A stretch of DNA of 64,000 nt from a bacterium (GTDB taxonomy: Bacteria; Hydrothermota; Tepidihabitantia; SM23-42; JAOAFX01). The translations under genes were made by a program, and so were the position numbers. The DNA lies in the NCBI GenBank assembly GCA_036796695.1, contig DAIRCK010000012.1, positions 8,524-72,523 on the forward strand. Direction: 5' to 3'. The notes beneath the pieces were generated by a model. It was not told the origin of the DNA and ran no database searches. It worked only from the letters and a program-made list of their open reading frames with translations. This document shows, piece by piece, positions 5,215-53,128 of the stretch; position 1 is the first letter of the stretch, and each line of letters begins with the position of its first letter.

Positions 5215-5227
5215 GTAGAATCTTTTT

Positions 5228-5253
5228 GGGGTGGGAGGTAAACCTCCCACCCC
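5228..5253 (+). promoter_or_regulatory. Hairpin (ggggtgggagg/taaa/cctcccacccc) between the stop of the upstream gene and the RBS of FG-GAP paralog B; positional analog of the hairpin at 741-770
   Basis: Perfect 11-bp inverted repeat, followed by GGGAGG and ATG ATG. Confidence 0.5.
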
Positions 5254-5261
5254 AGGGAGGA

Positions 5262-6995
5262 ATGATGAGACTCTTAATAATTGTGTTTGTATTATGTGGC
5301 TTTATTTCTTTTGGTGTGTGCATCAGTTTTCGCAAGACTGCTGAAATTCCAAGTGGTGCGATGGATAAAGCCTTTGGTTTTGATACTGACCACGATGGCA
5401 AACAAAATTTAGTATTAAGTTTTAATGGAATACAATTTTGGGAGCACATTGGTTTTGACCGATATATCTTAGAAGATACCGCCACACCATCGTGCTTATG
5501 TGACATAGGTTCTTCAGACTCAGATTCATTAACCGATATGGTCGGCAACATAAACGGTTTATGGCCCTATCCAATATATGTCTATGAATCGGCCACTTAT
5601 AATTCCAATCCCACGATTATCGTCTGGCAGGATAGCGGATTTATGAACATTGGTAACAGTTACATTACTGACCTTGACCAGGATGGGTTAAAAGAAATAC
5701 TCTTTGGATACTCTCCGATAGAACCTCCAAGATGGCGCACCTGTGTTTATGAAAATATTGGTGATAATCAGTATTCTCTGGTCTGGCAGGATACGACCTA
5801 TGCTATCTGGAGTGCTATCAATGGTGATTTTGACCTGGATGGTCAAACTGAATTTATCGCTGGTAGTGGCGGGTCTGGTTGGGTTTGGGTCTGGGAATGC
5901 GTAGGTAATAATCATTACCAGGTGGTTTTTCGAGATACCCTCCCGTGGCCTAACAACACTGATGTTTTTTCCGCCCATGATATGGATGGTAATGGTAAAC
6001 CGGAATTTTTGTTTACTTCAGTGGATTATTTTCATGGAAGAGCCTGGCTTTATCTGTATGAAACGATTGGTGATAACAACTATGATTTCTTTTTAGTTGA
6101 TTCAATTACAGGGATTCCTGGTAGTATGTTCTATCAAACCAGCATTTGCGGTGACATTGATGCTGATGGTAGGGAAGAAATCGTCTGGTCAACTTTTAAT
6201 CAATGGCATATTTATAAGGCAATTGGTATTCATCAATATCAAAAAATTTATAGCAGTGCCTGGACACTCCATGATTATAAAGTGATGAATGTCTGTGATT
6301 TGAATGGAAACGGGTATCCTGAGGTCATTGAGGCCTGGTCCCAGAATGGAATACCATCTATTGAAGGGACAACCATCTGGGAGATTGAGGGTGTGCATAT
6401 TATCCAGCCGAATTATGGTTATATTTTACATCCTGGAGAAGACTATCAAATTGCCTGGCAGAGATTTAACCCGCCCGGTGCAGATTCATTTGCCTTATTC
6501 TTTTCTTTTGATAATGGCAATACCTATGATACAATTGCCTTGGGAATTCCAGGTAGTGATACTACCTATCAATGGATTGTGCCCAATGTCATCTCTGACT
6601 CCTGCAAGATAATGATCTGGGCTTATGGGCCTCCAAGACCGGGTGAGCAACGACCCCGGGGCATTGTCTGGGATTTTGGTGATTTCAAGATTAGGCCGGG
6701 CTCAGATGTTGCTGAGACCCAATACCGACCAGCATATTATAACCTCAGGATTTCACCGAATCCAGTGCGAAATGAGAACCTGAGAATCCAGTATTCAGTG
6801 CCGAAATCATCAAAAGTGAGACTCGCGATTTATAATACTTTGGGTCAGTTAGAGGAGATGCTGGTGGATAAAGAGATAGCACCAGGGATTTATGAAATTG
6901 GATTAATAAATCCCTTGACAGACGGTGTCTATTTTGTAAAATTAACTACTGATGGAAAAATAATTACCAAAAAATGTGTGATATTAAAGAATTAA
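5262..6995 (+). CDS. FG-GAP repeat protein with T9SS C-terminal domain, paralog B of 779-2521
   Basis: Same architecture as paralog A. Nucleotides about 6379-6823 are almost identical to 1893-2340. The start was chosen at the ATG after the RBS; the ORF track begins at 5226. Confidence 0.8.
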   Translation: MMRLLIIVFVLCGFISFGVCISFRKTAEIPSGAMDKAFGFDTDHDGKQNLVLSFNGIQFWEHIGFDRYILEDTATPSCLCDIGSSDSDSLTDMVGNINGLWPYPIYVYESATYNSNPTIIVWQDSGFMNIGNSYITDLDQDGLKEILFGYSPIEPPRWRTCVYENIGDNQYSLVWQDTTYAIWSAINGDFDLDGQTEFIAGSGGSGWVWVWECVGNNHYQVVFRDTLPWPNNTDVFSAHDMDGNGKPEFLFTSVDYFHGRAWLYLYETIGDNNYDFFLVDSITGIPGSMFYQTSICGDIDADGREEIVWSTFNQWHIYKAIGIHQYQKIYSSAWTLHDYKVMNVCDLNGNGYPEVIEAWSQNGIPSIEGTTIWEIEGVHIIQPNYGYILHPGEDYQIAWQRFNPPGADSFALFFSFDNGNTYDTIALGIPGSDTTYQWIVPNVISDSCKIMIWAYGPPRPGEQRPRGIVWDFGDFKIRPGSDVAETQYRPAYYNLRISPNPVRNENLRIQYSVPKSSKVRLAIYNTLGQLEEMLVDKEIAPGIYEIGLINPLTDGVYFVKLTTDGKIITKKCVILKN

Positions 6996-16515: not shown

Positions 16516-17530
16516 TTACAAACCTCCTCAGTTCCTCAAGTTTATTTAATGCGGCACCAGAAAAAATTGATTCCCGAGCCATTTCCACCCCCTGTTTAAT
16601 AGTCTCAGCCTTTCCAGAAACATATATTGCGGCGCCTGCATTTAATAGTGCAGTATCTGTTTTGGGTCCTGGTTCACCTTTTAAAATAGAAATAAATGAA
16701 TCAATATTTTCCTTGTTATTCCTCACCCTTAATTCTTCCATACTACATCTTTTCATTCCATAATCCTCTGGAGAAATCTCGAATTCCATAATGCCCTTAT
16801 TCTTTATCTCAAGCACATAGGTTCTGGCGCTGGTTGTTATCTCATCAATTCCATCCGCACTGTATACGATTAATGCGTGCCTGACACCGAGGTTGTTCAA
16901 TGTCTTTCCAATTTTTTCGAGAAATTCCTTTCTACATACCCCGATGACCTGTTGTTCAACCAATGCAGGATTACATATTGGTCCAAGGATATTGAAAATT
17001 GTCCTGATACCAATCTCTCTTCTTGGCCCAATTACATTTTTCATTGCCGGGTGAAAGAGCGGAGCAAAGAGAAAACCAATTCCTATTTTTTCTATGCACT
17101 CCTTTATTAGTTCATAATCAATATCAAGTTTAATGCCCAGTGCGGAAAAAAGATCAGCACTTCCACAAAGGCTTGAGACCGACCTGTTTCCATGTTTTGC
17201 CACAAAACAGCCCGCACCTGCAGCAATAAATGCTGAGGTCGTTGAAATGTTGAATGTATGCATTCCATCACCACCAGTGCCACAGGTATCAACAAGATTT
17301 TGAGCCTGGCAGTTTATCTTTATCATCTTTGTGCGCATTGCCTTACAGAAACCTGTAATTTCCTCTATGGTCTCACCCTTCATCCTTAACGCAGTTAGCA
17401 AGGATGCTATCTGGGCTGGTGTTGCTTTGCCCTCCATAATTTCAATACATACCTGATATGCCTCATCTTCATTCAATGATTTATTTTCTACAATCTTTTT
17501 TATTGCATCTTGTATCCTTGACTCAGACAT
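16490..17530 (-). CDS. trpD: Anthranilate phosphoribosyltransferase
   Basis: [34 protein letters not shown]. The start was taken at MSESRIQ. Confidence 0.9.
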
Positions 17531-18518
17531 TATACCTCCTTGTATTAAAACAGGAAAAGTTTCCAGTGTGGCAGGCGACCCCATTCTGGTTCACTATTGC
17601 AAGGATTGCATCGCGGTCGCAATCTGCCCTCAATTTTATAACATCCTGAAAATTCTTTGATGTCCTTCCTTTTAGCCATAATTCCTTCCTGCTTCTTGAA
17701 AAATACCACATCTTTCCCGTCTCAAATGTTTTTCTTAATGATTCCTTATTCGAATACGCCAGCATCAATACAAGACCCGATATATCCTGTGTAATTGTTG
17801 GAATCAATTCGCTTTTCCAGTTAAGTGATTCTATAAATGCATCAACAAGTGAAATTCGTTTTGTATATAATGCCATTCCCAGCTGGACATCGATATCCAT
17901 CGCCGCGAGAATTTTTACCTCGTTCAGCGATGACACACCACCTGCCACGGTTATTTTTTTATCAGTTTTTTCACGAATTGCCTTCGCCTTTTCAATATTA
18001 ATGCCTTGCATCATTCCCTCTGTTTCAACAAATGTAAAGAGAAACTCATTCGTGTATGATTCAAATTCCTTTATTACATCAAATAATTCGATATCTGTCT
18101 TCTTTTGCCATCCACTGACAACAATTTTGTTATTGAATGTATCAAGTGCAATGATGATTCTCTCCTGTCCTATTTCCTTTTTCAGGGCAGAAAGAAATTT
18201 GTGGTTGATATTTCCTTTCTCAAATGCCCTGGAACCGATAATAATTTTATTTGCACCAGCAAGGATCAATTCCTTTGCCTTTTCAATACTTCTTATACCG
18301 CCGCCAACGCGACAATCTGCTACCTTAAGCAAATCTTTGATTAAATTCAGATTTTCGCCTTTGCCCATTGCTGCATCAAGGTCAATAACCGCAACCTCAT
18401 TATACCGATTAAACTCTTTTGCAAGTTTCACTGCATCATCATATTCTAAAACCTTTTCTCTACCCTGTCTTAACTGAACAACCTTATTATTCATCAAATC
18501 AATAGAACCTATTACCAT
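17523..18518 (-). CDS. hisA/hisI: Fusion protein: ProFAR isomerase HisA (residues ~1-235) + phosphoribosyl-AMP cyclohydrolase HisI (residues ~236-331)
   Basis: The N-terminal (beta-alpha)8 HisA carries IDL…GGGIRS…GGVSSL. The C-terminal [68 protein letters not shown] is the HisI PRA-CH signature. Confidence 0.8.
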
Positions 18519-23921: not shown

Positions 23922-26063
23922 TTATAGTGATGAGAATTCCCCAGGATGGACTTTGAATAATCCAAAGCCCACAACAAAATTCCAGAGTATGAATATCAAA
24001 GATGTGTTTGGTATTCCAAGTATTGGAATGAAGAGTATTGTTGTAATCAATGCCCCAAAACTCGCACCAAAAAGGTCAGTGCCATAAAGGATAGCAGCTT
24101 TCGGTTCACCAGCAATCTTTATTGCCAGTGGAAAATACATACCCACAAGAAATCCACCGATGAATACTAAAAGGGCAATGATGTAATTTGCATAGGATCC
24201 ATTTGTAAGTGCGAAGAGTAAGATTATTAAAAAATAAATACCGATGGCGCATTGAGTTGCTGATAACATACAAAGGTTCTTCCGGGATAGAGCAGAAGAT
24301 TGAAAGGATTTTATAATCCTGATTGAAAACAGAGTTCCTGATGCGAGTCCAAACATAAATAAACCTATGATAATTCCTATCCAGTTATAGACATATCCAT
24401 ATAGCACCTGGAATAATATCAAGAGTATTATCTCAGATGATATCCCTGCGGCACCGGTGGTGAATACTGATAGATAAATGACCGTCTTGCGATGCAAGAA
24501 GAAAAAAACAGGAAGTAAAAGTAAGAAGAAAAATCCTGATGGGATATTAAAGATTTTTATGAATAATTTTTTAAGCCCTTCAGATGAAATTCCACCCCAT
24601 AATAAGGCGTTGAAATAATAACAAACAGGCTTTAAATCGGTATTGATATAAGGTGTTGTTTTTTCAATTGATTGATTGATATATTTAATCCTTTCTTCTG
24701 TTAAACTATAGTCAAAAAAATATTGATTTACATAAAGAAGAGCAAGATTCCTATCCTGGATATTTTTCTTTAAAACCTCTTTGATTTCCATTCCAATTTC
24801 ATAATCCATTGCAATATATGTTGCTTTAGAAACAGGGAGTATGTGGACACCTTTAAAGACCTGTTTTAGTGTATTCTTAATCGTGCCCAGAAACTGGCTA
24901 TAAACAGGGCTGAGGATATCGGGTGTATAATTGACTCTTATGCAGAATATACCGTCCTTATTGAGTCTACTTTTTGATTCCTGAAAAAATTTTAGGGTGT
25001 AGTATCTATTCAATTGGGCATTTATCGGGTCAGAAAGATTGATAATAATACAATCAAATTGTTCCTTTGTATTCTTTATGTAATATCGACCATCACCTAT
25101 AAGCACATTTACCCTGTTATCAGAAATCTTAGAACCAATATATTTTTTAGAGATTTCAATTATCTTCGGATCGAGTTCCAGATAATTCAATTTCTTAATT
25201 GAAGGATGTTTTAGGATCTCATTTATACCCCCACCCATCCCACCGCCGATAAACAAAACATCTTCAGGTTTTTTATGAACCAATAATGGATAATGGACAG
25301 CCTCCTCTGAAGAATAAATATCTGGATATGCAAAATCAAAGATTCCGTTTAAATAACAATTTATCTGGTCACCAGTTCTTGTTAAAATAATATTCCCGTA
25401 TTTTGATTCAAAGACATCAATAAGACTTTGATGGGGCATCTGGAGTTTTCTCAATTGAAATTCTATGTGATTTACACCAATAAGCAAAAATAACGAAAAT
25501 ATAGAAATTAGCAAAAAAATTCTTTTTTTGATACATAGGTATCCGGCAAATAACAATAATGATATGAGTATAATAAAAATCCCAGAAGGAGGGATAATGG
25601 ATATTAAAATAAAAGATAATATGATACCACCAAAAAAAGAACCGATACATTCAATAAAATATACCTTTTGTGGTTTTAAAATAAAAGAGGCAGCAGGAAA
25701 CAGGGCACCGAAAATGATACAGGACGGAGATAGTGTAATGAATGAAATCATTATTATCCTGTAGAAATCAATGAATTCACCGAATGGTATTGAAAGAATA
25801 CCTCGTGCACTCCTTATGAATATAAAAGAAAATGTCAAACAGAAACACAATAAAAATAGAAGATACGCATAATTTTTTTCCGACTTATTTCTGAAATTTA
25901 TTTTTGAATATACAAGACTTCCCAGCCCGGTCAATAAGAGCCACAGGCATAAAACAATACCTGAAATCAATTCATTGCTCGAGAAAAACCCAAGCATTTC
26001 GCGGATGATTATTGTTTGGGCAATAACCGCCGCAATACCAGAGATAAATACTGCAACCTGCAT
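23922..26063 (-). CDS. Polytopic membrane protein with a central spermidine-synthase-like (polyamine aminopropyltransferase) domain
   Basis: More than 10 hydrophobic helices flank VLFIGGGMGG...LELDP-II...VLIGDGR-Y....FD-II-NL-DP, the SpeE-type Rossmann fold. Confidence 0.7.
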   Translation of the reverse strand: MQVAVFISGIAAVIAQTIIIREMLGFFSSNELISGIVLCLWLLLTGLGSLVYSKINFRNKSEKNYAYLLFLLCFCLTFSFIFIRSARGILSIPFGEFIDFYRIIMISFITLSPSCIIFGALFPAASFILKPQKVYFIECIGSFFGGIILSFILISIIPPSGIFIILISLLLFAGYLCIKKRIFLLISIFSLFLLIGVNHIEFQLRKLQMPHQSLIDVFESKYGNIILTRTGDQINCYLNGIFDFAYPDIYSSEEAVHYPLLVHKKPEDVLFIGGGMGGGINEILKHPSIKKLNYLELDPKIIEISKKYIGSKISDNRVNVLIGDGRYYIKNTKEQFDCIIINLSDPINAQLNRYYTLKFFQESKSRLNKDGIFCIRVNYTPDILSPVYSQFLGTIKNTLKQVFKGVHILPVSKATYIAMDYEIGMEIKEVLKKNIQDRNLALLYVNQYFFDYSLTEERIKYINQSIEKTTPYINTDLKPVCYYFNALLWGGISSEGLKKLFIKIFNIPSGFFFLLLLPVFFFLHRKTVIYLSVFTTGAAGISSEIILLILFQVLYGYVYNWIGIIIGLFMFGLASGTLFSIRIIKSFQSSALSRKNLCMLSATQCAIGIYFLIILLFALTNGSYANYIIALLVFIGGFLVGMYFPLAIKIAGEPKAAILYGTDLFGASFGALITTILFIPILGIPNTSLIFILWNFVVGFGLFKVHPGEFSSL

Positions 26064-26106: not shown

Positions 26107-26134
26107 TTGACTCTCCATCTTTTCTGCATAAAAT
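26107..26134 (+). promoter_or_regulatory. Promoter TTGACT-N16-TAAAAT for the thioredoxin-fold gene; the AAGGAGG RBS follows
   Basis: The hexamers and spacing are seen directly. Confidence 0.5.
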
Positions 26135-26155: not shown

Positions 26156-26422
26156 ATGAAAAAGATCTATATTTTTGGCAAACAGACCTGTCCGGTTTGT
26201 AAGGATGCCTATGAGAAATTTTGCTATTTTAAAGAAAAAAAGGGTTTTGATGCACCGATTGAATATATTGATATGGATACTGTTGACGGTATGGCAGAAG
26301 GTGCATTTTACGAAGTTTCAGATATCCCAACAATCATCATATTTGAAGATGGAAATGAGGTCATACGCTGGGCAAAAAAACCACCGGTGAGTGAGGAATT
26401 CTTACCCTATCTGGTAAAGTAA
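26156..26422 (+). CDS. Small thioredoxin/glutaredoxin-fold protein (C-P-V-C motif)
   Basis: YIFGKQTCPVCKDA... is a typical Trx-fold CxxC motif. The start ATG lies after the RBS. Confidence 0.6.
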   Translation: MKKIYIFGKQTCPVCKDAYEKFCYFKEKKGFDAPIEYIDMDTVDGMAEGAFYEVSDIPTIIIFEDGNEVIRWAKKPPVSEEFLPYLVK

Positions 26423-26482
26423 TTTTATTACTTTGATCTCGTGAGGTAAATCATAAATCCAGGTATAAAAAAAATTAAAAAA

Positions 26483-27244
26483 TTGAGAAATATCCTCAAA
26501 AGATTCCCGGGTGTTGTAGTTGCTTTCTCAGGTGGAGTTGACTCAACATTCCTTTTAAAAATAGCGTCAGATATCCTTAAAGATAATGTTATTGCCGTAA
26601 CTGCCACATCACCCCTTTATCCTGAAACCGAATTGAAACAGGCAAAAAGGATTGCCAGACTATTAGATGTTGAACACATAATTATAAATTCAAATGAACT
26701 TGAAAATAAATATTTTAAAAATAATCCGCTCGATCGTTGTTTCTATTGCAAGGTTGAGTTGTTTAGAAAAATAAAAAAGATTGCCCAAAAAAAAGGTTAT
26801 ACTGTTATTGAAGCAAGCAATTATTCTGATTTGAATGATTTTAGACCTGGATTAAAGGCAGCAAAAAAACTCGGCATTGTATCACCATTGATAGAAGCAA
26901 AATTAAAAAAAGATGAAATCCGATATTTTGCCCGACAATATAAATTGCCGAACTGGAACAAACCTTCAATGGCATGCCTTGCCTCCAGAATTCCCTATGG
27001 GACTGAGATAAATAGAAAAATCTTAAAGCGGGTTGAAAAAGGAGAGGATTTCTTAAAAAAATTAAAATTTTCACAGTGCCGGCTCCGGGACCATTTTCCT
27101 GTTGCCCGGATTGAAATAATGGAAGATGAATTTGAAAGATTGATTAAAAAGAGAAAAAAAATTATTAGATATTTCAAAAAAATTGGGTACAAATATACCA
27201 CCCTTGATTTAGAAGGTTATAGAACCGGAAGTATGAATTTATGA
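26483..27244 (+). CDS. larE: LarE-family PP-loop ATP pyrophosphatase (sulfur insertase of nickel-pincer nucleotide cofactor biosynthesis), three-cysteine variant
   Basis: The PP-loop VAFSGGVDST plus RPGLKA, LPNWNK, SMACLASRIPYGT and TLDLEGYRTGSMN all match LarE. Cysteines in CFYC and MACLASR suggest the Fe-S-dependent, non-sacrificial type. Confidence 0.8.
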   Translation: MRNILKRFPGVVVAFSGGVDSTFLLKIASDILKDNVIAVTATSPLYPETELKQAKRIARLLDVEHIIINSNELENKYFKNNPLDRCFYCKVELFRKIKKIAQKKGYTVIEASNYSDLNDFRPGLKAAKKLGIVSPLIEAKLKKDEIRYFARQYKLPNWNKPSMACLASRIPYGTEINRKILKRVEKGEDFLKKLKFSQCRLRDHFPVARIEIMEDEFERLIKKRKKIIRYFKKIGYKYTTLDLEGYRTGSMNL

Positions 27245-28329
27245 CCCCCTTAAAGACTATCGCAAAGACATTTTTCAAGATTGGACTCATCGGTTTTGGT
27301 GGTGGTCCCGGGATGCTGGCAATAATAAGGTCTGAATGTGTCAAAAAGAAAAAACTCGTATGTGATGATGAACTGACTACTGCGGTCGCAATAGGACAGA
27401 TGTTGCCCGGACCATTTGTGCCAAATTACTGTGAATATATTGGATATTGTCTTGCTGGTTTAAAAGGAGCAGTTGTAGCGGGAATTTTTTTACTACTACC
27501 CTCGTTCATTATTATGCTCATACTTTCTTATTTATATTTTTCTTTTCATACACTGCCTGCAATCAACCAGGTCTTTAAAGGTATTGGTGCGGCTATGACT
27601 GCAATAATCATCTGGGCAGGGATTGATATGGGAAGGTTGATAATCAACAAGTTCAACCGGGTTATTGTTTTTGTCTTTGCCTTTATTCTATTTCTGGTTA
27701 AATTTGATCCGGTCCTTACTGTTCTCTCCGCCGGAGGTTTGAGTATAATACTTGAACAAATAAAATCGCCCAAAATTTTTCTTGCTGTGCCGATTTTTTT
27801 ATTTGATCTTAGAAAGGCGATTGAATTATTCGGTATATTTTTAAAGATTGGAGCAGTAATATTTGGTGGTGGCTATGCTGCAATTCCATTTATTCAAAAT
27901 GAAGTCTGTTTCTACCGGGACTGGCTTACCACAAGGGAGTTTCTTGATGGCTTTGCCCTCGGTCAGATAACGCCTGGTCCGGTTGCAATCACTGCTACAT
28001 TTGTTGGTTTCAAAGTGATGGGTATCATAGGGGCATTGATTTCTACAATCGGGATCTTTCTTCCGTCATTTCTAATGCTCATCATTTTAATAAAGGTATA
28101 CAAAAAAATTGAACAAAATTGCTATGTTCAATCGTTTTTAAATGGGGTAAAATCAGCAGTCGTTGCAATTCTTTTATCAACGGGAATTTTTTTCATTCCT
28201 GTGAATTGGTTTAATATCGTCTATGGAATATTTGGACTTCTGTGTCTTTTTATATTGCTCGTCGTAAAAAAAATTGATCCATTTATAATTGTAGTTGTCG
28301 GCGTTATCCTTGGATTGATAATCGGATAG
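27241..28329 (+). CDS. chrA: Chromate transporter family protein (two CHR domains)
   Basis: FFKIGLIGFGGGPGMLAIIR... recurs in the second half as FLKIGAVIFGGGYAAIPFIQ. Confidence 0.8.
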   Translation: MTPLKTIAKTFFKIGLIGFGGGPGMLAIIRSECVKKKKLVCDDELTTAVAIGQMLPGPFVPNYCEYIGYCLAGLKGAVVAGIFLLLPSFIIMLILSYLYFSFHTLPAINQVFKGIGAAMTAIIIWAGIDMGRLIINKFNRVIVFVFAFILFLVKFDPVLTVLSAGGLSIILEQIKSPKIFLAVPIFLFDLRKAIELFGIFLKIGAVIFGGGYAAIPFIQNEVCFYRDWLTTREFLDGFALGQITPGPVAITATFVGFKVMGIIGALISTIGIFLPSFLMLIILIKVYKKIEQNCYVQSFLNGVKSAVVAILLSTGIFFIPVNWFNIVYGIFGLLCLFILLVVKKIDPFIIVVVGVILGLIIG

Positions 28330-28347
28330 GTTCAAATAGTTCTGGAC

Positions 28348-28375
28348 TTGACTTTTAGTGCATTTTAACTAAAAT
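28348..28375 (+). promoter_or_regulatory. Promoter TTGACT-N16-TAAAAT upstream of bioY, then an AGGAGG RBS
   Basis: Seen directly. Confidence 0.5.
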
Positions 28376-28390
28376 ATTCCAGGAGGTAAA

Positions 28391-28972
28391 ATGAACATCA
28401 CTAAAACGATTGATTATCTTAATAATGGCAGAGTTATTTATTTTAGATGGTTAAAAGAATTGAGCTGGATTAAAAAACTTGGGCTTTCTTTATTATTTGC
28501 CTTGATTACTGGAGTCTCTGCCCAGATTCGGATTCCTCTTGGTTTTACACCGGTTCCGCTAACCGGCCAGGTCTTTGTAGTATTATTGAGTGGTGTCCTT
28601 TTAGGTGGATTTTGTGCTGGGATGAGTATGATTTTTTATTTAATCCTTGGTGCAGTCGGAGTTCCCTGGTTTGCAGGATTTCGCGCCGGAATAAATCCCG
28701 GACCGACCCTTGGTTATTTACTGGGATTCATCCCAGCAGCAATCTTTGTAGGACTCTTCGCCCACAGGCATAAAAAACTTTTCTACCAGATTTTGATTAT
28801 GCTCATTGGTTTATTATTGATATACCTTTTTGGTGCATTGAATTTTGCGTTTCTGCTTAAAACAGATTTTTTAACAACGATAAAACTTGCCGTCTTACCA
28901 TTCATACCATTTGATATCATAAAGGCAATACTTGCGGGATTTTTATCACGGGCGATAATACCTGATGATTGA
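28391..28972 (+). CDS. bioY: Biotin transporter BioY (ECF S-component family)
   Basis: IRIPLGFTPVPLTGQVFVVLLSGVLLG matches the BioY signature. Confidence 0.8.
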   Translation: MNITKTIDYLNNGRVIYFRWLKELSWIKKLGLSLLFALITGVSAQIRIPLGFTPVPLTGQVFVVLLSGVLLGGFCAGMSMIFYLILGAVGVPWFAGFRAGINPGPTLGYLLGFIPAAIFVGLFAHRHKKLFYQILIMLIGLLLIYLFGALNFAFLLKTDFLTTIKLAVLPFIPFDIIKAILAGFLSRAIIPDD

Positions 28973-29032
28973 AGTTTTAATGAATATATGTATAGAATTA
29001 TTTTTAAAATTTTTTTAACAGGAGTTTTAATT

Positions 29033-30442
29033 ATGGCACAAAACTGCAATGCAGGAGAATACCGCGAATCGCCCCATGCTGGTTCCTGGTATCCGGGTAG
29101 GGAAAAAGACCTTCAGGAAGTGATAAAGACCTATCTTAAAAATGCCAAGGCAAAGGTTGTCGGTGAAATATATGGACTCGTTTCACCCCATGCAGGTTAT
29201 ATGTATTCAGGACCATTTGCAGCATTCTCTTATAAACTGCTGGAAAATAAAGAATTTGATGCTGTAATTGTAATAGGACCAAGCCACCGCTATGGGTTTT
29301 ATGGTGTTTCTGTTGATAAAATGGCAGGTAGAAAAACACCTTTAGGCAAAGTAGAATTTGATACAAAACTTGCGGACAAAATAATAAAACAGAATTCAAA
29401 GGTAATAAAATATGAACCAAAAGCACATATTGATGAGCATTCGGTTGAAATACAGATACCATTTCTCCAGATGGTCTTAAAAAGATTGAAACTTATTGAA
29501 ATCGTTATGGGCTCTCAGGATTATAACACCTGCAATGCACTTGCTGATGCGATTGTAAATGCTACAAAAGGAAAAAAAATTTTAGTAATTGCGAGTTCTG
29601 ACCTATCCCATTACCATAACCAGGAGACTACAGAAAAACTTGATAATCTTGTGATAGATGCAATTGAAAAATTTGACCCTGAACTTCTCTATAAAAGACT
29701 CGCTTCTGACAGTTGTGAAGCCTGTGGCGGTGCACCGATAATTACAACGATGCTTGTGGCAAAGAGAATGGGTGCAGATAAAGCAAGGGTTTTGATTTAT
29801 GGAACGAGTGGTGATATAACCGGTGATTATGCACAGGTCGTTGGCTATCTCTCTGCGGCATTTTTTAAAGGGAATGAGCAAGGACATAAAAAAGTTGGCA
29901 TTGACCTTGGTTTTACTGAAGAAGAAAAGAAGATATTAAAGGATATCGCAAGGAAGACGATTGAGGCAGTAGTTAAGGGTAAAAAACCACCTGAATTCAA
30001 GGATGTGCCGGAAAAGTTGAAAGAGCCTTATGGTATATTTGTGACGCTCACCAAACATGGAAATTTAAGGGGTTGTATCGGTCATATCATTGCTGACGAA
30101 CCTCTTTATAAAATCTGCCAGGAAATGGCAAAGGCTGCAGCACTCAATGACCCGCGGTTCAACCCCGTGAATGAAAAAGAACTTCCTGATATTGAAGTTG
30201 AGATTTCGGTTCTCACACCAATGGAAAAAGTTAAAGATTTTAAAGATATTGTCATTGGCAGGGATGGTCTGTTTATCCGTCGGGGATACTATAGCGGTCT
30301 ACTTCTACCACAGGTGGCGACTGATTATGGATGGAATGTTGAAGAATTCCTCGAACAAACCTGTGTGAAGGCAGGACTTCCTGAAGACGCTTATAAATTG
30401 AAAGATACAGAAATCTATAAATTTTCTGCCCAGATTTTTTAG
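29033..30442 (+). CDS. Fusion of AmmeMemoRadiSam system protein B (MEMO1-like, N-terminal) with an AMMECR1 domain (protein A, C-terminal)
   Basis: The N-terminus (SPHAGSWYPG...GLVSPHAGYMYSGPFAAFSY...VIVIGPSHR) is the Memo fold. The C-terminus (...LRGCIGHII...NDPRFNPV...) is AMMECR1. Confidence 0.75.
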   Translation: MAQNCNAGEYRESPHAGSWYPGREKDLQEVIKTYLKNAKAKVVGEIYGLVSPHAGYMYSGPFAAFSYKLLENKEFDAVIVIGPSHRYGFYGVSVDKMAGRKTPLGKVEFDTKLADKIIKQNSKVIKYEPKAHIDEHSVEIQIPFLQMVLKRLKLIEIVMGSQDYNTCNALADAIVNATKGKKILVIASSDLSHYHNQETTEKLDNLVIDAIEKFDPELLYKRLASDSCEACGGAPIITTMLVAKRMGADKARVLIYGTSGDITGDYAQVVGYLSAAFFKGNEQGHKKVGIDLGFTEEEKKILKDIARKTIEAVVKGKKPPEFKDVPEKLKEPYGIFVTLTKHGNLRGCIGHIIADEPLYKICQEMAKAAALNDPRFNPVNEKELPDIEVEISVLTPMEKVKDFKDIVIGRDGLFIRRGYYSGLLLPQVATDYGWNVEEFLEQTCVKAGLPEDAYKLKDTEIYKFSAQIF

Positions 30443-30510
30443 TCAGGAGCGTTAACATAAAAAAAAGATTTATAAAAACGATAAGTGACATCGGGTTCGC
30501 AAAATTAGAT

Positions 30511-31128
30511 TTGCACAGAGAAATCAGGAAGGGATTTCCTGAGGTCGTGCTCTGTCAGGGTAAATCTGAAGAACAAATTGTGAAATGTGCAGGGCAGATA
30601 CTAAAAGTCAATAAAAAAGTTCTTTTGACCAGGGTAAACCCATTCGTTGCCAAATTATTAGATAGTAAGTTTAGATCAGGAAGATATTATCCTGAGGCGA
30701 GATTGTATTATATTGGCAAACAGAAGAAAAAATCAGGGTTCGTGGTCGTTTTATCTGCTGGCACCGGTGATATTCCTGTGGCTGAAGAATGTGCAGTTAC
30801 TGCTGAGATTATGGGAAGCAATGTGAAGAGAATATATGATGTTGGTGTTGCTGGATTACACAGACTTTTAAATTTCAAAAAACAGATAAAAAAGGCACGG
30901 GTGCTCGTCGTGGTTGCGGGTATGGACGGTGTCCTACCCTCAGTCGTGGCTGGATTATTCTCGGCACCGGTGATTGCTGTTCCCACAAGTATTGGCTACG
31001 GCGCAAATTTCAATGGTGTTGCACCTTTACTTACTATGCTCAATTGCTGTGCACCTGGTGTGGCAGTGGTGAATATTGATAATGGTTTTGGTGCGGGTTA
31101 TCTTGCCGCAATTATAAATAGTCTATGA
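30511..31128 (+). CDS. larB: LarB-like (PurE-related) nickel-pincer cofactor biosynthesis carboxylase/hydrolase; TTG start
   Basis: VVLSAGTGDIPVAEECAV...VVVAGMDG-LPSVVAGL...VIAVPTS-GYGA matches the LarB/AIR-carboxylase-like fold with GTGD in place of the PurE SxSD. Confidence 0.7.
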   Translation: MHREIRKGFPEVVLCQGKSEEQIVKCAGQILKVNKKVLLTRVNPFVAKLLDSKFRSGRYYPEARLYYIGKQKKKSGFVVVLSAGTGDIPVAEECAVTAEIMGSNVKRIYDVGVAGLHRLLNFKKQIKKARVLVVVAGMDGVLPSVVAGLFSAPVIAVPTSIGYGANFNGVAPLLTMLNCCAPGVAVVNIDNGFGAGYLAAIINSL

Positions 31129-31784
31129 TTGTCTTTGATAAAGTAACCAAGATTTTCCAGAAAGACTGGGTTGCACTTGATACCATCTCTTTTGAAATCC
31201 AAAAAGGCGAATTTGTCTTTATCACCGGACCTACCGGTGCAGGAAAGAGCACAATTCTTAAACTCATATACAAGGACGAAGAACCGACAAAAGGAACGAT
31301 AAAGGTTCTTGATTATAATCTCCACTTTCTCAAACACAATAAATTACCTGAATTCCGCCGCAAGATCGGTGTAATCTTTCAGGACTTCAAACTTCTTCAG
31401 GACCGAACTGTTGAAGAAAATGTTGCATTTGCCCTTGAAGTAACCGATATTCCACCCCGTGATTTAAAGAAAAAGGTCTTTGATATCTTAACCTATGTAA
31501 AACTGAGTCACAAGAAATTTAACTATCCATACCAGTTATCTGGTGGCGAGCAACAAAAGATTGCGATTGCCCGGGCACTGGTCCGTGACCCATATATCCT
31601 GCTTGCTGATGAACCAACAGGAAATCTCGATTTGAAGAGTTCCCAGGAGGTCCTTGAAATCCTGCTCGACATTAATTATAAAGGAACAACGGTTCTGATG
31701 GCAACACACAATCAATTGCTCGTGCGCAAGGCAAAGAAACGAATCATCCATCTGGAAAATGGTAAGATCATTTCGGATCGATGA
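31125..31784 (+). CDS. ftsE: Cell division ATP-binding protein FtsE
   Basis: Walker A GPTGAGKST, the LSGGEQQ signature and Walker B LLADEPTGNLD. Confidence 0.9.
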   Translation: MIVFDKVTKIFQKDWVALDTISFEIQKGEFVFITGPTGAGKSTILKLIYKDEEPTKGTIKVLDYNLHFLKHNKLPEFRRKIGVIFQDFKLLQDRTVEENVAFALEVTDIPPRDLKKKVFDILTYVKLSHKKFNYPYQLSGGEQQKIAIARALVRDPYILLADEPTGNLDLKSSQEVLEILLDINYKGTTVLMATHNQLLVRKAKKRIIHLENGKIISDR

Positions 31785-31796
31785 AAAAGGATTGAT

Positions 31797-32645
31797 ATGG
31801 CATTACGCATTGGGGTAAGAGAAGGATTCAGAACAATAATCCGGAGTCGTTCTTTATTCATTCTTTCTTTACTCGTTGCGGCAATATCATTTTATTTGTT
31901 GTCAATCTTTGGACTGGTAACGATCAATCTATATAAAATGGCAAATCTCCTCGATGAAAAGATCGAAATCATTGCATTCCTTGAAGAACGGACAGATATC
32001 CAGTGGTTGAAAAATAGTATAAAAAAGATAACCGGTGTCCAGGAAGTCGTTTATGTCTCAGCAGAAACTGCTTTAAAACAACTCCAGGAAGAGGTCTCGG
32101 AAACAAAAGAGATTGTTCGTGTATTTGAGGATAATCCATTACCCGCATCTATAAGAATAAAACTTGAGCCACATTATCGTAATACAAAAGGGCTTGAAGA
32201 AATCAGCAAGAAAGTTTTATTACTCAAGGGTGTAAAAGATACGATATATGGTGGAGAACTCGTTGAGCAACTCAAAAAAATAACGAATATTATGTTATTC
32301 TTTGATATTGGCTTATTAATAATCATTACCCTCTCGGTCATATTTGTCATATTCCAGACCATCAAATTAACAATCTTTGCTCATGCTACAGAGATTGAGA
32401 TAATGAAACTCGTTGGCGCAACCGATACATTTATCACAATCCCATTTGTGTTCCAGGGATTGATTCAGGGTATACTGGGCGGCATCATTGCCTTTATACT
32501 TCTTGTAATAACCGTGCGTATTGCATCATCATTTTTCAATATACCATTCTTTCCTAAATTTTTATTCTTTCTGGGAAGTATAATGTTCGGTATGGTATTC
32601 GGTATAATAGGCTCAAGTATTGCATTGAGAAGGTTTTTAAAATGA
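31797..32645 (+). CDS. ftsX: Cell division permease FtsX
   Basis: Four-TM FtsX architecture with a large periplasmic loop, immediately after ftsE. Confidence 0.85.
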   Translation: MALRIGVREGFRTIIRSRSLFILSLLVAAISFYLLSIFGLVTINLYKMANLLDEKIEIIAFLEERTDIQWLKNSIKKITGVQEVVYVSAETALKQLQEEVSETKEIVRVFEDNPLPASIRIKLEPHYRNTKGLEEISKKVLLLKGVKDTIYGGELVEQLKKITNIMLFFDIGLLIIITLSVIFVIFQTIKLTIFAHATEIEIMKLVGATDTFITIPFVFQGLIQGILGGIIAFILLVITVRIASSFFNIPFFPKFLFFLGSIMFGMVFGIIGSSIALRRFLK

Positions 32646-33754
32646 AATTAATTTTAATATTTCTGTGCTTATTTTTACAGATAAATCAAAAACAGAAAGA
32701 ACTCGATGACCTGAAGAAAAAATTGAGTGAAGTAAGGCAAGAAATCAAACAACTTGAAAAAGAAAAATCTGGTGCCCTGGCAAGGATTGAAAAGATTGAT
32801 GAGGCGATAAATCTTTCCACAGAATATATTGAAAAACTAACGGCGCAGGAATATGAAGAGAAAATGCGGGTTGCTGAATTAAACCGTGAGATCGCACGTC
32901 TTGAATCAAAAATGAAATTTCAAAAAGAGGAGTTAAAAGAGAGATTGATCCGCCTTTATAAATGGACTCCATTCTACAAACTGGAAATTTTATTTTCATC
33001 AAAATCAATACCTGAGATACTTTCAACTTCTTATTATTTGCAGATCCTCGCCAAGAATGACAGGAAATTATTTTTTGAATTTAAAGATGACTGGGCAAAA
33101 TACCTTGCCGATAAAAAAATGCGTGAGCAACTGATTTCAGTATTAGAAACCAGGCGCCAGGAAAAAGAACTGGAACTTGACCAGTTGAATAAGGAGAGAC
33201 AGGAAAAGAGAAAAATCCTTGATGAGATAGCGAAACAGGAAAATGAGAAAAAAAAGGTGGAGAAGGAACTGAAGAGTGCCCAGCGCAAACTTGAAGATTT
33301 GATCGTTTCACTCAGGAAGAAAAAGGAAAAGGAAGAGGCAAGTGCGAAGAGTTATTTTGAGATGAACAAAGGTAAACTACCCTGGCCCTGCAAGGGTTCG
33401 GTGGGCACAAAATTTGGTAAGGTTGTCCATCCAAAGTATAATACGACGACAAAAAATAATGGAATTGATATATTGAGCAACTATGGAGAAAATGTATATG
33501 CGGTTGCCCAGGGCAAGGTTGTATATGCAGGAAAATTTATCGGCTATGGTGATTTGGTTGTGATTGACCATCAGGATGGATTTTATTCGCTTTATGGACA
33601 CCTTTCAGAGATCCTCGTCAAGGTTGGTGATGAAGTGCCTTCAGGAAGGATTATTGGCAGGGTTGGAGAAAGCGGGTCATTATCAGGCCCAATGCTACAT
33701 TTTGAATTGAGAAAAGATGGAAAACCAGTAGATCCATTAGTCTACTTGGAATAA
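32642..33754 (+). CDS. EnvC-like murein hydrolase activator / M23 peptidase with N-terminal coiled coil
   Basis: A long coiled coil is followed by the M23 LytM domain (…GIDI…G--VYA---G-V-YAG…GYG--V-IDH--G--S-YGHL). It sits in the ftsEX-envC arrangement. Confidence 0.8.
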   Translation: MKLILIFLCLFLQINQKQKELDDLKKKLSEVRQEIKQLEKEKSGALARIEKIDEAINLSTEYIEKLTAQEYEEKMRVAELNREIARLESKMKFQKEELKERLIRLYKWTPFYKLEILFSSKSIPEILSTSYYLQILAKNDRKLFFEFKDDWAKYLADKKMREQLISVLETRRQEKELELDQLNKERQEKRKILDEIAKQENEKKKVEKELKSAQRKLEDLIVSLRKKKEKEEASAKSYFEMNKGKLPWPCKGSVGTKFGKVVHPKYNTTTKNNGIDILSNYGENVYAVAQGKVVYAGKFIGYGDLVVIDHQDGFYSLYGHLSEILVKVGDEVPSGRIIGRVGESGSLSGPMLHFELRKDGKPVDPLVYLE

Positions 33755-34664: not shown

Positions 34665-37100
34665 ATGAATATATATCTGATTTTCTTTTTCTTTTCAGGC
34701 ATTTCGGGCTTAATCTATGAAGTGGTCTGGGCAAGATTACTGTTACTTGCCTTTGGCTCAACAACTGTAGCAAATACCCTTGTGATAACTGCATTTATGT
34801 TGGGACTCGGTTTTGGTGGATTATATTTTGGCAATTATGTTGATCGAGAAAAGTCTCCCTATAAAATATTCTCATATCTTCAACTGGGTATTGGTTTATC
34901 TTCTTTTTTATTGCTATTCTTTCTTCCTCAATTACCACGATTGTCTAAAGCCATTCTAAATAATACACACTTAAGCCAGGCTGGTTATTTATCTTTTATA
35001 TTTATCATTACTTTTATCATATTATTCATTCCCACATTCTTAATGGGTGGAACATTTCCAGTAATGACGAAACTCTATGTGCGGGATGAAGATAAAATCA
35101 AAAATGGAATTGGATTGTTATACGGACTCAATACGTTTGGCGGGGTCATTGGTGCATTATCTGCAGGATTTTTTCTTATTAGAAATTTAGGACTTTCACT
35201 AACCCAGTCGATTGCAATTTTTATAAATTTTGCAATTGGCATTTTTATGTTTCATTCTCATCCAAAAATATCAACAGAAAATAGAGATTCTAAATCTGTT
35301 CTACAGGATTTCAAGCAGGCAGGTATCGAAAAATTAAAAAGATACCTGCCCATCATTGCTGGACTCACGGGATTTGCCAGCCTTGCCTGCGAAATCTTCT
35401 GGATCCGTGCATTATCGATATTTCTAACCAATTCCACCTACACCTTTACAATAATTTTGATTGTTTATTTAAGCGGAATTTTTATTGGAAGTATTATATT
35501 TGCAAAATTGTCAAAAAAATCAAACCTGATTAATATCTTTGCAACAGTCCAGATCCTTACAGGTTTATATATAGTAATCGGCTGCCTATTTTTAAACAGA
35601 CTGCCTGGATTATTATTTGGAATCCAGAATATCCTTGAAATTCCTTTTTTTAGAATGTTTTTGCCTGCACTAATTCTTTCTATTTTTGTCGTTCTCATTC
35701 CTACAATATTTATGGGTATAAGTTTCCCACTTATCTGTTCTCTATATAGTCAGGAGATTAAACACCTTGGCAACAAACTGGGCAATGTTTATTTTACAAA
35801 TACACTGGGCAGTGCACTCGGTTCTTTATTGGCAGGTATCTTTTTTATAAACTATCTTGGCGTCATAAGGGGATTAATTGCTGTTGGTTTGATCAATTTA
35901 CTGATCGGCTTTTTTTTCACACTGTATCTGAAAAACAGATCATTGAATATTATAATTTTTGTTTGTGCGATAATTATTTCTTTTTATTCAATACAAAATA
36001 AATTCATCCTTCCACCATCTATTTATCATTCACCCACCAGACAGGACCGTGTTCTATATTACAAAGAAACAAGGGATGGAACCATAATTGTGAGTGAAGA
36101 TCGCCTTACAGGCATAAGATCCTGCTATGTAAATAACAGCGCTGTAATTGGAACAACCTATGATGCCATAAAGGTTGTAAAAATGCTTGGGAATCTTCCT
36201 TTTATTTTCAATCCTGGTGCAAAAGATATATTGGTCATAGGTTTTGGGGTCGGTATCACGACCTCAAGCATTGCCCGTTATAATATAAAGAAAATAGACT
36301 GTGTTGAAATTTGCCCGGGTTTGCGCGAGGCGGCAAAATATTTCACAAATTTCAATAATTACATCTTCAAAAATCCATTAATACATTTTATTGCTAATGA
36401 TGGAAGAAATTTTTTGCTCCTGAGTAATAAGAAATATGATGCCATTTCCTGTGACCCCACACATCCAATTTTAGGCAGTGGTAATCTTTATACTAAGGAA
36501 TATTTTATGCTATGCAAAGAACATTTATCTCAAAATGGTGTAGTATGTCAGTATCTACCCTTCCATAAATTGAGTCCTGAGGAATTTAAATCTCTAATAA
36601 AAACCTTTGCTATAGTCTTTCCATATACCTCAATCTGGCTTGGTTATTCTCACGGTGTGCTTATAGGAACAAATGCTCCACAGACGATAAAATTTGAGTC
36701 CTTAAAAAATCTAAGAGATGAAATGCTCAATGACCCATATCTTCTTGCAGTCTCTTATCTTCTTGATACAGAGGCGATTAATAATTTCAGCACTGAGGCA
36801 AAAATTAATACTGATAACCATCCTGTCATAGAATTCTTCACACCATTAAGTCTGAGGAATGAAAACTGGGAGCAGAACATAAATGCATTATTAAAAAACA
36901 GAGTTGATGTCAGAAAAACCATTGAAGGTATCGACGATTTAGAAAAACTAAACCGGTACCTGCAGGGTCAAAATTATTTTATTGAAGGGTTAATTTATCA
37001 AAACAGAAGAGATAGGAAGTCATTGATCCAGGCGTTTAGAAAGGCGCTGGAGATAAATCCGGAAAATAATGAAATAAAGTTATTTCTGCAATCCCAGTGA
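34665..37100 (+). CDS. Membrane-anchored spermidine-synthase-like protein with C-terminal TPR-like region; paralog of 23922-26063
   Basis: An N-terminal multi-TM region and the SpeE-like core (ILVIGFGVGITT...VEICPGL...HFIANDGRNFL...YDAISCDPTHP). Confidence 0.7.
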   Translation: MNIYLIFFFFSGISGLIYEVVWARLLLLAFGSTTVANTLVITAFMLGLGFGGLYFGNYVDREKSPYKIFSYLQLGIGLSSFLLLFFLPQLPRLSKAILNNTHLSQAGYLSFIFIITFIILFIPTFLMGGTFPVMTKLYVRDEDKIKNGIGLLYGLNTFGGVIGALSAGFFLIRNLGLSLTQSIAIFINFAIGIFMFHSHPKISTENRDSKSVLQDFKQAGIEKLKRYLPIIAGLTGFASLACEIFWIRALSIFLTNSTYTFTIILIVYLSGIFIGSIIFAKLSKKSNLINIFATVQILTGLYIVIGCLFLNRLPGLLFGIQNILEIPFFRMFLPALILSIFVVLIPTIFMGISFPLICSLYSQEIKHLGNKLGNVYFTNTLGSALGSLLAGIFFINYLGVIRGLIAVGLINLLIGFFFTLYLKNRSLNIIIFVCAIIISFYSIQNKFILPPSIYHSPTRQDRVLYYKETRDGTIIVSEDRLTGIRSCYVNNSAVIGTTYDAIKVVKMLGNLPFIFNPGAKDILVIGFGVGITTSSIARYNIKKIDCVEICPGLREAAKYFTNFNNYIFKNPLIHFIANDGRNFLLLSNKKYDAISCDPTHPILGSGNLYTKEYFMLCKEHLSQNGVVCQYLPFHKLSPEEFKSLIKTFAIVFPYTSIWLGYSHGVLIGTNAPQTIKFESLKNLRDEMLNDPYLLAVSYLLDTEAINNFSTEAKINTDNHPVIEFFTPLSLRNENWEQNINALLKNRVDVRKTIEGIDDLEKLNRYLQGQNYFIEGLIYQNRRDRKSLIQAFRKALEINPENNEIKLFLQSQ

Positions 37101-37141: not shown

Positions 37142-37534
37142 ATGTCTGGCATTATTTTTTTTAAAACCAGAGAGCTAAATAAAATTAAAGATTTTTATGC
37201 AAAAAGGATTGGAATGGAAATCTGGTTGGAACAGACAGATTGCGTGATTATGAAACATGATAATCTATTACTCGGTTTCTGTCAGCGCGAAGAAATGGAA
37301 AACCAGGGCGTTATCACATTCTTTTATGAAAATACTGACCAGGTCTATGAAATGTATAAAAAATTCCGCCTTGAGGCATTAGCCGAGCCAGCAGTAAATG
37401 AAAAATACAATATTTACCATTTTTTTATCAAAGACCCTGAAGGCAGATTGGTTGAATTTCAAACTTTCTTGCCTCAACAAAAGGGGACAGGCACTTTTTT
37501 TATTTCCATTTTGCTGGCCTACCTCGCGCTCTAA
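37142..37534 (+). CDS. Glyoxalase/VOC-family small protein
   Basis: The pattern resembles a VOC beta-alpha-beta-beta-beta module; the match is weak. Its 3' end overlaps the convergent transposase gene. Confidence 0.5.
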   Translation: MSGIIFFKTRELNKIKDFYAKRIGMEIWLEQTDCVIMKHDNLLLGFCQREEMENQGVITFFYENTDQVYEMYKKFRLEALAEPAVNEKYNIYHFFIKDPEGRLVEFQTFLPQQKGTGTFFISILLAYLAL

Positions 37535-38162
37535 TCGTAGATTCCAATCCTAAATTTTTACAAATTTTAATTTGCCATTCTTCTTCTCCATAGGGAGCCT
37601 GACGATTTATGCTATTTCTTAATTTTTCTAAATCATTAAAAGATAATGGTTCATCAACAAATTTAGTCCAGTGAGAAGGAATATCTATCGGGGGATTACT
37701 TAAAATTTTATTGGGTATCAAGTTGATTCTTTCTCGATGTGATGACCATTCCCATTCAACTGCTGAATTTACTAATTTTGCCCTTACTGGATTGCCTTCA
37801 ACGTATCTCAAAACTGTTAATAAATAATTGTTTTCCTGAACAATAAAACTTTTGTATCTTCCCTGCCAGATGTGTCCACTTGTACCATAATGTTTATGAT
37901 AACGGCGCACATGGGTCGTCATAATTAAATGCATAAAATTACTTAAATTTTCACCTTTCAATGGCATAGCCACTATATGAAAATGATTTGGCATTATACA
38001 ATAAGCGAATATTCTAATATCAAATTCAATCCTTGCTGAAGAAATTAATTCTATGAATACTCGGTAGTCTTGTTCTTTACGAAAAACTATTTGCCCTCCG
38101 TTACCACGGTTTAATATATGATAAATCAATCCATCAACTATGCTACGCGCAATCCTTGGCAT
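37500..38162 (-). CDS. IS200/IS605-like Y1 (HUH) transposase of the REP-associated (RAYT) type; orphan, with no IS ends recognised
   Basis: The HUH motif CIMPNHFHIV and the catalytic Tyr region LRYVEGNPVRA. At 220 aa it matches RAYT-like rather than minimal IS200 TnpA. Confidence 0.75.
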   Translation of the reverse strand: MPRIARSIVDGLIYHILNRGNGGQIVFRKEQDYRVFIELISSARIEFDIRIFAYCIMPNHFHIVAMPLKGENLSNFMHLIMTTHVRRYHKHYGTSGHIWQGRYKSFIVQENNYLLTVLRYVEGNPVRAKLVNSAVEWEWSSHRERINLIPNKILSNPPIDIPSHWTKFVDEPLSFNDLEKLRNSINRQAPYGEEEWQIKICKNLGLESTIRARGRPAKWK

Positions 38163-51251: not shown

Positions 51252-51257
51252 GTTTTG

Positions 51258-52784: not shown

Positions 52785-52835
52785 TGATTAAAAATGATAA
52801 AAACAATAAAGATTTATATTTAAAAGGAAAGGAGC

Positions 52836-53117: not shown

Positions 53118-53128
53118 GATTAAATGTT

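Follow-up and report, generated by a model that had tools for sequence, protein, structure and literature searches.

How does a bacterium come to keep larE and larB, genes of nickel-pincer nucleotide (NPN) cofactor synthesis, at a locus with neither the nickel insertase gene larC nor the gene for a cofactor-using LarA? The question is raised by a 64 kb (64,000 nucleotides) stretch of DNA from a candidate division WOR-3 bacterium, hereafter the window, in which larE and larB are separated by genes for a ChrA-family transporter, BioY and a Memo::AMMECR1 fusion protein. An initial annotation, made from the DNA letters, described the lar genes as split and suggested that the intervening genes might be functionally tied to them. 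We conclude, with a probability of roughly 0.6, that two neighbouring gene modules encode the first two steps of NPN-cofactor synthesis, and that LarC and the cofactor-using enzyme are most likely encoded elsewhere in the genome. The locus is an ordinary variant, a lineage-specific layout of a known pathway in the uncultured phylum WOR-3. For comparison, 12 related loci were collected via LarB and LarE homologues, and a quick tree built on Memo::AMMECR1 plus LarB splits them into two groups. Clade B (the window, L008, L001, L015, L018 and L014) is monophyletic with 100% bootstrap support and its LarB proteins are 73–94% identical to that of the window; the LarB proteins of clade A (L011/L012, L013, L016 and L017) are 64–67% identical to it. 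The closest species-representative genome is a candidate division WOR-3 metagenome-assembled genome with the same gene order and a 75% identical LarE.

The gene at 26483–27244 (+ strand) encodes LarE, the predicted ATP-dependent sulfur insertase, as the initial annotation had it. Its product passes the TIGR00268 equivalog model with 310.8 bits (cutoff 150), matching model positions 7–259 of 259, and it scores 157 bits in alignment with L. plantarum LarE (5udq) and 85 bits with a [4Fe-4S]-type LarE (8cnz). The PP-loop ATP-binding motif SGGxDS is present as SGGVDS (residues 16–21; 26528–26545), and among the substrate-phosphate residues the Ser of MACLASR (26969–26989) corresponds to L. plantarum S180 and RLR (residues 200–202) to R212-x-R214. 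The cysteines of C-x-x-C and MACLASR, correctly picked out at the outset, are C86 and C89 (in CFYC, 26738–26749) and C165; 8cnz has cysteines at the aligned positions, and L008 and L001 retain all three. In T. maritima LarE, C92, C95 and C172 bind a [4Fe-4S] cluster, and the enzyme is catalytic with cysteine desulfurase and needs an external sulfur donor (PMC9283937). Judged by its CxxC plus distal Cys motif, the window protein fits this [4Fe-4S]-dependent subclass, sharing the SGGxDS PP-loop, the cysteine pattern and the offset from L. plantarum Cys176 with the T. maritima enzyme (PMC9283937) and the archaeal 8cnz. Two further claims about LarE had to be given up. It does not match L. plantarum LarE motif for motif, since the latter has SWYYAK, without CxxC, at the position of C86/C89, and C165 falls one residue past Cys176, the same shift as published for T. 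maritima LarE. Nor does the three-Cys motif mark a special subclass, as it is carried by most LarE homologues (PMC9283937). The L. plantarum protein is orthologous and the same biosynthetic step is expected of both, but it is a single-Cys sacrificial enzyme whereas the window LarE has CxxC…C. The ratio of non-synonymous to synonymous substitution rates (dN/dS) for larE is 0.14–0.15 among the window, L008 and L001, with the motifs intact. An in-frame stretch 5′ of the larE TTG start (26423–26483), IINPGIKKIKK, resembles the N-terminal extension of LarE in L008, although a TAA at 26444 separates it from the position of the L008 GTG start; the stretch also holds ATA AAA AAA (26465–26473), similar to the putative larB start described below.

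LarB, the predicted nicotinic acid adenine dinucleotide (NaAD) carboxylase/hydrolase, is encoded on the same strand by the canonical open reading frame (ORF) at 30511–31128. The alternative that this gene is purE, against which the assignment was tested, failed: the protein scores 276.4 bits with NF033503 (cutoff 175) and 32.2 bits with the purE model TIGR01162 (cutoff 149.6). It aligns with residues 41–245 of L. plantarum LarB (7mj0, 195 bits), and the window protein and 120 WOR-3 homologues all have the equivalents of the catalytic Cys221 and of D128, H158 and R159. The E180 position is Asp in all 120, the LarC-adjacent ones included. The GTGD sequence had been singled out as a notable variant; L. 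plantarum and L007, however, have Ser at position 127, which is occupied by Ala in L004, L006 and 95 clade A homologues and by Gly in 25 clade B homologues. Since the position is naturally variable, GTGD is a neutral clade marker. The dN/dS of larB among the window, L008 and L001 is 0.035.

The TTG at 30511 is an unlikely start for larB. The stretch 5′ of it is conserved as amino acids, with only synonymous differences from L008, and holds the family-wide D-[IL]-G-[FY]-A-K-[IL]-D motif, so that the conserved N-terminal stretch lies upstream of the start first proposed. No ATG, GTG or TTG was found in this stretch when positions 30421–30511 were inspected. An in-frame ATA at 30457, 7 nt after AGGAG (30445–30449), stands where clade A has ATG AAA AAA. 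Five clade B genomes share this conserved ATA, 7–8 nt after AGGAG; the codons after it are Lys-rich, reading AAA AAA in three of these genomes. Public gene calls for the start disagree, giving proteins of 193, 205, 219, 228 or 235 aa. Read from the conserved sequence, larB most likely begins at AUA 30457 and extends to 31128, which would give a protein of 223 aa. A −1 frameshift at a T6 run, fusing Memo::AMMECR1 to LarB, was considered and dropped as the run is not conserved (T4 in L008).

Comparison of the 12 loci resolves the genes around larE and larB into two modules. Module 1 consists of a thioredoxin-like protein with a CPVC motif, LarE and ChrA; module 2 consists of BioY, Memo::AMMECR1 and LarB. 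In the window, L008, L001 and L018 the Trx–LarE–ChrA trio immediately precedes BioY, but it also occurs without LarB nearby, in L019/L020 (where nadB is next) and in L021 (in another context), and L014 and L015 carry the LarB module without the LarE trio. The two modules thus occur both joined and apart within clade B. L015, in which they are apart, nests among the joined loci with 95% bootstrap support, and there is no single-origin pattern for the joined state, which suggests that the joined and separate states interconvert within the clade. To describe the locus as a canonical operon broken up by insertions is therefore not fitting: ChrA goes with LarE, and BioY and Memo::AMMECR1 go with LarB. 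In L015 an insertion sequence-related DUF772 fragment was seen upstream of BioY, at the place where the LarE trio is missing. In L019 (JGI Ga0078972_1010032) and L020 (ENA k141_1392572) the trio is followed by nadB (L-aspartate oxidase, de novo NAD synthesis), a gene for a 93-aa tetratricopeptide repeat (TPR) protein and a major facilitator superfamily (MFS) gene; in the window these genes lie 23 kb downstream (51255–54697), so that, compared with L019/L020, the BioY-to-hflX segment is a block that has been inserted or relocated. The neighbourhood check that the initial annotation proposed gave a divided answer, in that the order is conserved as two modules in WOR-3 loci, while the linkage of the Memo::AMMECR1 fusion to lar genes is absent outside WOR-3.

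The two clades differ in the slot that follows LarB. In clade A (L011–L013, L016 and L017) a larC gene, confirmed by TIGR00299 and NF052512, overlaps the larB stop and is followed by genes for an extracytoplasmic function-type sigma factor and a zf-HC2 anti-sigma factor. In clade B (the window, L008, L001, L014, L015 and L018) it is ftsE that overlaps the larB stop, followed by ftsX and an envC-like gene. In the window these three genes lie on the + strand at 31125–31784 (ftsE; TIGR02673, 282.5 bits, cutoff 264.85), 31797–32645 (ftsX) and 32642–33754 (envC-like, M23), the latter two identified by FtsX and M23 matches. The sister WOR-3 lineages CP070664.1, CP070834.1 and LJNI01000011.1 share the Memo::AMMECR1–LarB core (62–68% and 64–67% identity, respectively), with BioY upstream of the fusion in one of them; there LarC and then the sigma/anti-sigma pair come after LarB, with no LarE–ChrA within 10 kb, in contrast to the ftsEX–envC genes of the window's clade. 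In the clade A loci L011–L013, L016 and L017 a gene for DUF498 (PF04430) is a recurrent close neighbour on the upstream side of Memo::AMMECR1, and in L013 genes for ApbE and a TIGR04337 radical S-adenosylmethionine (SAM) protein lie 4–6 kb upstream. Distant genomes have canonical larE–larB–larC clusters.

Signals in the DNA are consistent with two transcription units, although they are not proof of them. The two best intergenic promoter-like matches have identical hexamers, TTGACT-16-TAAAAT (10 of 12 positions), and lie 5′ of the thioredoxin-like gene (26107–26134, + strand) and 5′ of bioY (28348–28375, + strand), the latter being followed by an AGGAGG Shine–Dalgarno sequence. Overlapping ATGA start and stop codons join LarE to ChrA, LarB to FtsE and FtsX to EnvC, and the genes within each module are presumably co-transcribed. 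An Rfam scan of the window gave no family at threshold and hence no riboswitch or other RNA.

All ORFs of the initial annotation lie at the coordinates it gave, and the genes between larE and larB had been named correctly, as searches with PF02417/TIGR00937, PF02632 and TIGR04336/TIGR04335 confirmed for ChrA, BioY and Memo::AMMECR1. Of the proposed tie between them and the lar genes, the conserved, lineage-specific gene order stood, whereas a shared cofactor function appears improbable. In module 1, the first gene (26156–26422, + strand) encodes an 88-aa thioredoxin-fold protein with an invariant CPVC (residues 12–15). Its Pfam matches (Glrx-like and Thioredoxin) and its PDB matches (a glutaredoxin-like protein and thioredoxins) are weak, but the gene stands directly 5′ of larE, strongly conserved, in L008, L001, L018, L019 and L021, with a dN/dS of about 0.1. 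On the other side of larE, the gene at 27241–28329 (+ strand), whose start overlaps the larE stop by 4 nt (ATGA), encodes a two-domain anion transporter of the CHR (ChrA) family (PF02417 in two copies, 279 bits; TIGR00937, 237.7 bits, cutoff 171.7). The LarE–ChrA pair is kept while its neighbours vary, with two kinds upstream and three downstream. The physiological sulfur donor of Fe-S-type LarE has been left open in the literature, and the thioredoxin-like protein, as a reductant, or ChrA, in the transport of an anion or sulfur compound, may help LarE. At distant LarE loci the sulfur- or metal-supply neighbours are an FdhD sulfurtransferase (L002), a NifS cysteine desulfurase (L003) and a CbiM-like transporter (L005). 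In contrast to [4Fe-4S]-dependent LarE systems, the window LarE adjoins neither LarB/LarC nor a cysteine desulfurase; compared with the T. maritima type, it is encoded together with a dedicated CPVC thioredoxin-fold protein and a ChrA-family transporter.

Module 2 begins with a BioY-family membrane protein (28391–28972, + strand; PF02632, 123.6 bits). The A and T components of an energy-coupling factor (ECF) transporter were not found by the Pfam scans of the window, and BioY may be a solitary ECF-type S component. Every clade B locus has it upstream of Memo::AMMECR1, as does L017 of clade A. Memo::AMMECR1 itself (28988–30442, + strand, 484 aa) combines both domains in one polypeptide (TIGR04336, 282 bits, cutoff 26; TIGR04335, 189 bits, cutoff 99), with the AMMECR1 motif LRGCIG at 30065–30082. 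Its hydrophobic N-terminus, MYRIIFKIFLTGVLIMAQNC (28988–29047, + strand), is a predicted signal or lipoprotein-type peptide and is conserved as amino acids, with an in-frame start codon each time, in 10 of 10 WOR-3 loci. Within it an M-x-Q-x-C is invariant (…IMAQxC, with the Cys at about position 17–20) and a twin-arginine motif is absent. The possibility that the peptide is an artefact of choosing the longest ORF was rejected on the basis of this amino acid conservation upstream of MAQNC in all ten loci; the start at 28988 assigned initially was thus upheld, and the MAQNC start of public gene calls is probably wrong. These features suggest that the fusion is probably exported or lipid-anchored. 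An N-terminal hydrophobic extension was scored, with a crude hydrophobicity test, in about 69% of representative fusions, and many distant homologues with such an extension nonetheless adjoin a cytoplasmic radical-SAM partner.

It is possible that the intervening genes act directly, with Memo::AMMECR1 as a non-LarA client or processing enzyme and BioY importing a precursor. All WOR-3 loci have an intact Memo::AMMECR1 immediately upstream of LarB (nine distinct loci, with LarB identities of 63–94% and varying flanks), so that the adjacency is kept across the phylum despite rearrangement around it. Adjacency to lar genes was also the criterion that recently revealed new NPN enzymes (PMC13524815); AMMECR1, whose function is not known, adopts the nucleotide-binding RAGNYA fold and has a conserved Cys (PMC2034487), and the link is not examined in the literature searched, where no connection between AMMECR1 and Lar proteins was found. 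We then asked how the fusion behaves elsewhere. A survey at E <= 1e-30 gave 3,375 representative clusters, and the best 150 of these were examined for domains; all 150 match both Memo and AMMECR1, and none has a LarB domain joined to them. The neighbourhoods of 80 metagenome fusion loci (855 kb) were also surveyed. Of the fusions in these loci 79 are less than 55% identical to that of the window, and the remaining one is on a short WOR-3-like fragment that does not extend to the neighbouring genes. A confirmed radical-SAM partner (TIGR04337) lies within about 2 kb in 33 of the 80, whereas LarB and LarC occur within 10 kb of the fusion in a single locus, about 9 kb away on the opposite strand, and BioY, ChrA and LarE in none. 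In that locus, L098 (Ga0315291_10001168), LarB (58% identity) and LarC lie about 8–9 kb upstream of a radical SAM–Memo::AMMECR1 pair, and their closeness to the fusion is probably coincidence. Canonical lar clusters, for their part, lack BioY, ChrA and Memo::AMMECR1. Furthermore, the conserved Sec- or lipoprotein-type signal would probably place the WOR-3 fusion outside the cytoplasm, where LarB, LarC and LarE act; this speaks against any direct involvement with the cofactor. A direct role for these genes therefore appears improbable, and the suggestion that Memo::AMMECR1 is a redox partner is unlikely to be correct. The Memo::AMMECR1–LarB linkage is confined to WOR-3 and is best read as a lineage-specific operon habit of Memo::AMMECR1 and BioY, not as shared chemistry.

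The fusion can also be compared with the AmmeMemoRadiSam system (TIGR04335, TIGR04336 and TIGR04337). A 2007 paper described Memo–AMMECR1 fusions together with the radical-SAM neighbour, and AMMECR1 is still uncharacterized (PMC2034487). The A (AMMECR1) and B (Memo) components are found here too, in their widespread fused form, but where the radical SAM adjoins many other fusions, in WOR-3 the fusion adjoins LarB instead. Neither the Pfam scans nor tblastn with a confirmed TIGR04337 protein as query revealed the TIGR04337 partner in the window, whose only radical SAM protein is RimO/MiaB-like.

We next consider where LarC and the cofactor-using enzyme might be. All non-overlapping window ORFs of 90 aa or more were scanned against Pfam, and the ORF dropped by the non-overlap filter, a HisA–HisI fusion, was checked separately. 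Among these ORFs there is no LarC (PF01969) and no LarA (PF09861), nor did six-frame tblastn of the window with five LarC queries give a match better than E = 0.1; the queries were confirmed by TIGR00299, the full-length ones also by NF052512, and two came from WOR-3. The absence of both genes from the window, as first reported, is thus borne out. The lack of LarA is not in itself unusual. In about 15% of the genomes surveyed, larB, larE and larC occur without larA (PMC11796402), scattered lar genes and larA-less genomes are documented (PMC11796402; PMC13524815), and non-LarA NPN clients are now known (PMC13524815). Two of these, the aldo-keto reductase (AKR)-family NphT and an NPAD-dependent ornithine cyclodeaminase (PMC13524815), have no counterpart here: neither AKR (PF00248) nor ornithine cyclodeaminase was found by the Pfam scans of the window, and LarC is missing locally too. 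The situation resembles that in LarA-less genomes with larB, larE and larC, for example in cyanobacteria, which likewise have no LarA nearby and for which another client is presumed (PMC11796402). In comparison with the larABCDE operon of L. plantarum, LarB and LarE are orthologous and the same two steps are expected, but the window has no LarA, LarC, LarD or nickel transporter, and the genes form two modules with unrelated partners.

In the scheme that we favour, the activities of LarB and LarE would be those of their characterized homologues. Module 2, with BioY, the exported Memo::AMMECR1, LarB and ftsEX–envC, would supply LarB, which would carboxylate nicotinic acid adenine dinucleotide at C5 and release AMP to give the mononucleotide of pyridinium-3,5-biscarboxylic acid (P2CMN). 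Module 1, with the CPVC thioredoxin-fold protein, LarE and the ChrA-family transporter, would supply a [4Fe-4S]-type LarE, which would adenylate P2CMN and convert both carboxylates to thiocarboxylates, acting catalytically with an external sulfur donor to give the mononucleotide of pyridinium-3,5-bisthiocarboxylic acid (P2TMN). Nickel insertion by LarC and use of the cofactor would depend on genes elsewhere in the genome; LarC stands at the end of the LarB operon in sister WOR-3 lineages and may have been moved or replaced there in the window's clade. Given the purifying selection on LarB and LarE (dN/dS as above), the pathway is probably active, with LarC elsewhere.

Several observations weigh against this scheme. 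LarC is absent from about 190 kb of partly overlapping clade B sequence. None of the best 120 WOR-3 LarC homologues falls on a contig with the length of a clade B lar contig, although all of these are at least 59% identical to the clade A query and of the LarC-adjacent type, and a more divergent LarC would escape. LarE is the fastest-evolving gene of the block (76% identity where LarB has 94%), the LarE lineage of the window's clade differs from that of other sampled WOR-3 genomes, and the sole chromosome-scale WOR-3 genome in the LarE list has a 54% identical LarE. The promoter-like sites are no commoner in the region than in shuffled sequence.

If LarC were truly lost, LarB and the Fe-S LarE, with the thioredoxin-like protein and ChrA, could make the nickel-free dithiocarboxylate nucleotide P2TMN, which might be used as such, be metallated without LarC or be metallated by a non-homologous insertase. 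The absences just described would be expected in this case, ftsE stands exactly at the larB stop in six of six clade B loci, LarB and LarE are still under purifying selection, and the clade has a distinct LarE lineage with its own accessory genes. On the other hand, the clade B genomes were inspected only in small part, scattered lar genes are common, and larB, larE and larC are treated as a co-occurring set in which LarC is the strongest predictor of cofactor synthesis (PMC11796402; PMC13524815). A candidate for a replacement nickel insertase was not visible in the Pfam scans of the window either. Such a P2TMN pathway is possible but unlikely, and true loss of LarC in the window's clade, taken by itself, is doubtful. 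The fuller proposal, that the clade has dispensed with LarC and makes a nickel-free or differently metallated dithiocarboxylate pyridinium nucleotide by means of LarB, Fe-S LarE, the thioredoxin-fold protein and ChrA, is doubtful too; if true, it would be a LarC-independent branch of pincer-cofactor chemistry. Because LarB and LarE are kept under selection and lar genes are often scattered, we consider a LarC encoded elsewhere in the genome likelier than its true loss.

The rapid divergence of LarE, together with a LarB that has no canonical start codon for its conserved N-terminus, might instead indicate that both genes are decaying, non-functional leftovers of a lar operon that lost LarC. 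This is very hard to reconcile with dN/dS values of 0.035 for LarB and 0.14 for LarE, with the retention of all catalytic and cluster-binding residues in relatives down to 63% LarE identity and with the conservation of the ATA start plus Shine–Dalgarno sequence in five genomes, and we regard decay as highly improbable.

The remainder of the window contains trp, aro and his operons, surface proteins with type IX secretion system (T9SS) tails and housekeeping genes. Two large polytopic membrane proteins with a spermidine synthase-like domain bracket the lar block (23922–26063, − strand; 34665–37100, + strand), and their positions are kept in L008 and L018. An IS200/Y1-type transposase-like gene lies at 37500–38162 (− strand), where L008, whose LarB is 94% identical, has a Zincin_1 gene instead. 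The HisA–HisI (PRA-CH) fusion gene (17523–18518, − strand) overlaps the trpD start by 62 nt. The FG-GAP/T9SS-tail surface proteins at 779–2521 and 5226–6995 are nearly identical over their C-terminal ~170 aa, which points to a recent duplication or to gene conversion.

Most of what seemed odd about this locus is normal for the pathway or a lineage marker. The sister clades differ cleanly in the presence of LarC after LarB, a natural experiment on whether LarB and LarE are ever retained in its absence. The conserved triplet of thioredoxin-like protein, LarE and ChrA may show how the Fe-S-type LarE gets reduced sulfur in vivo, and the apparently conserved AUA start codon of larB is a modest lead. 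Finally, adjacency to lar genes, which is used to find nickel-pincer enzymes, can also flag lineage-specific neighbours, such as the exported Memo::AMMECR1, that are probably not clients of the cofactor.

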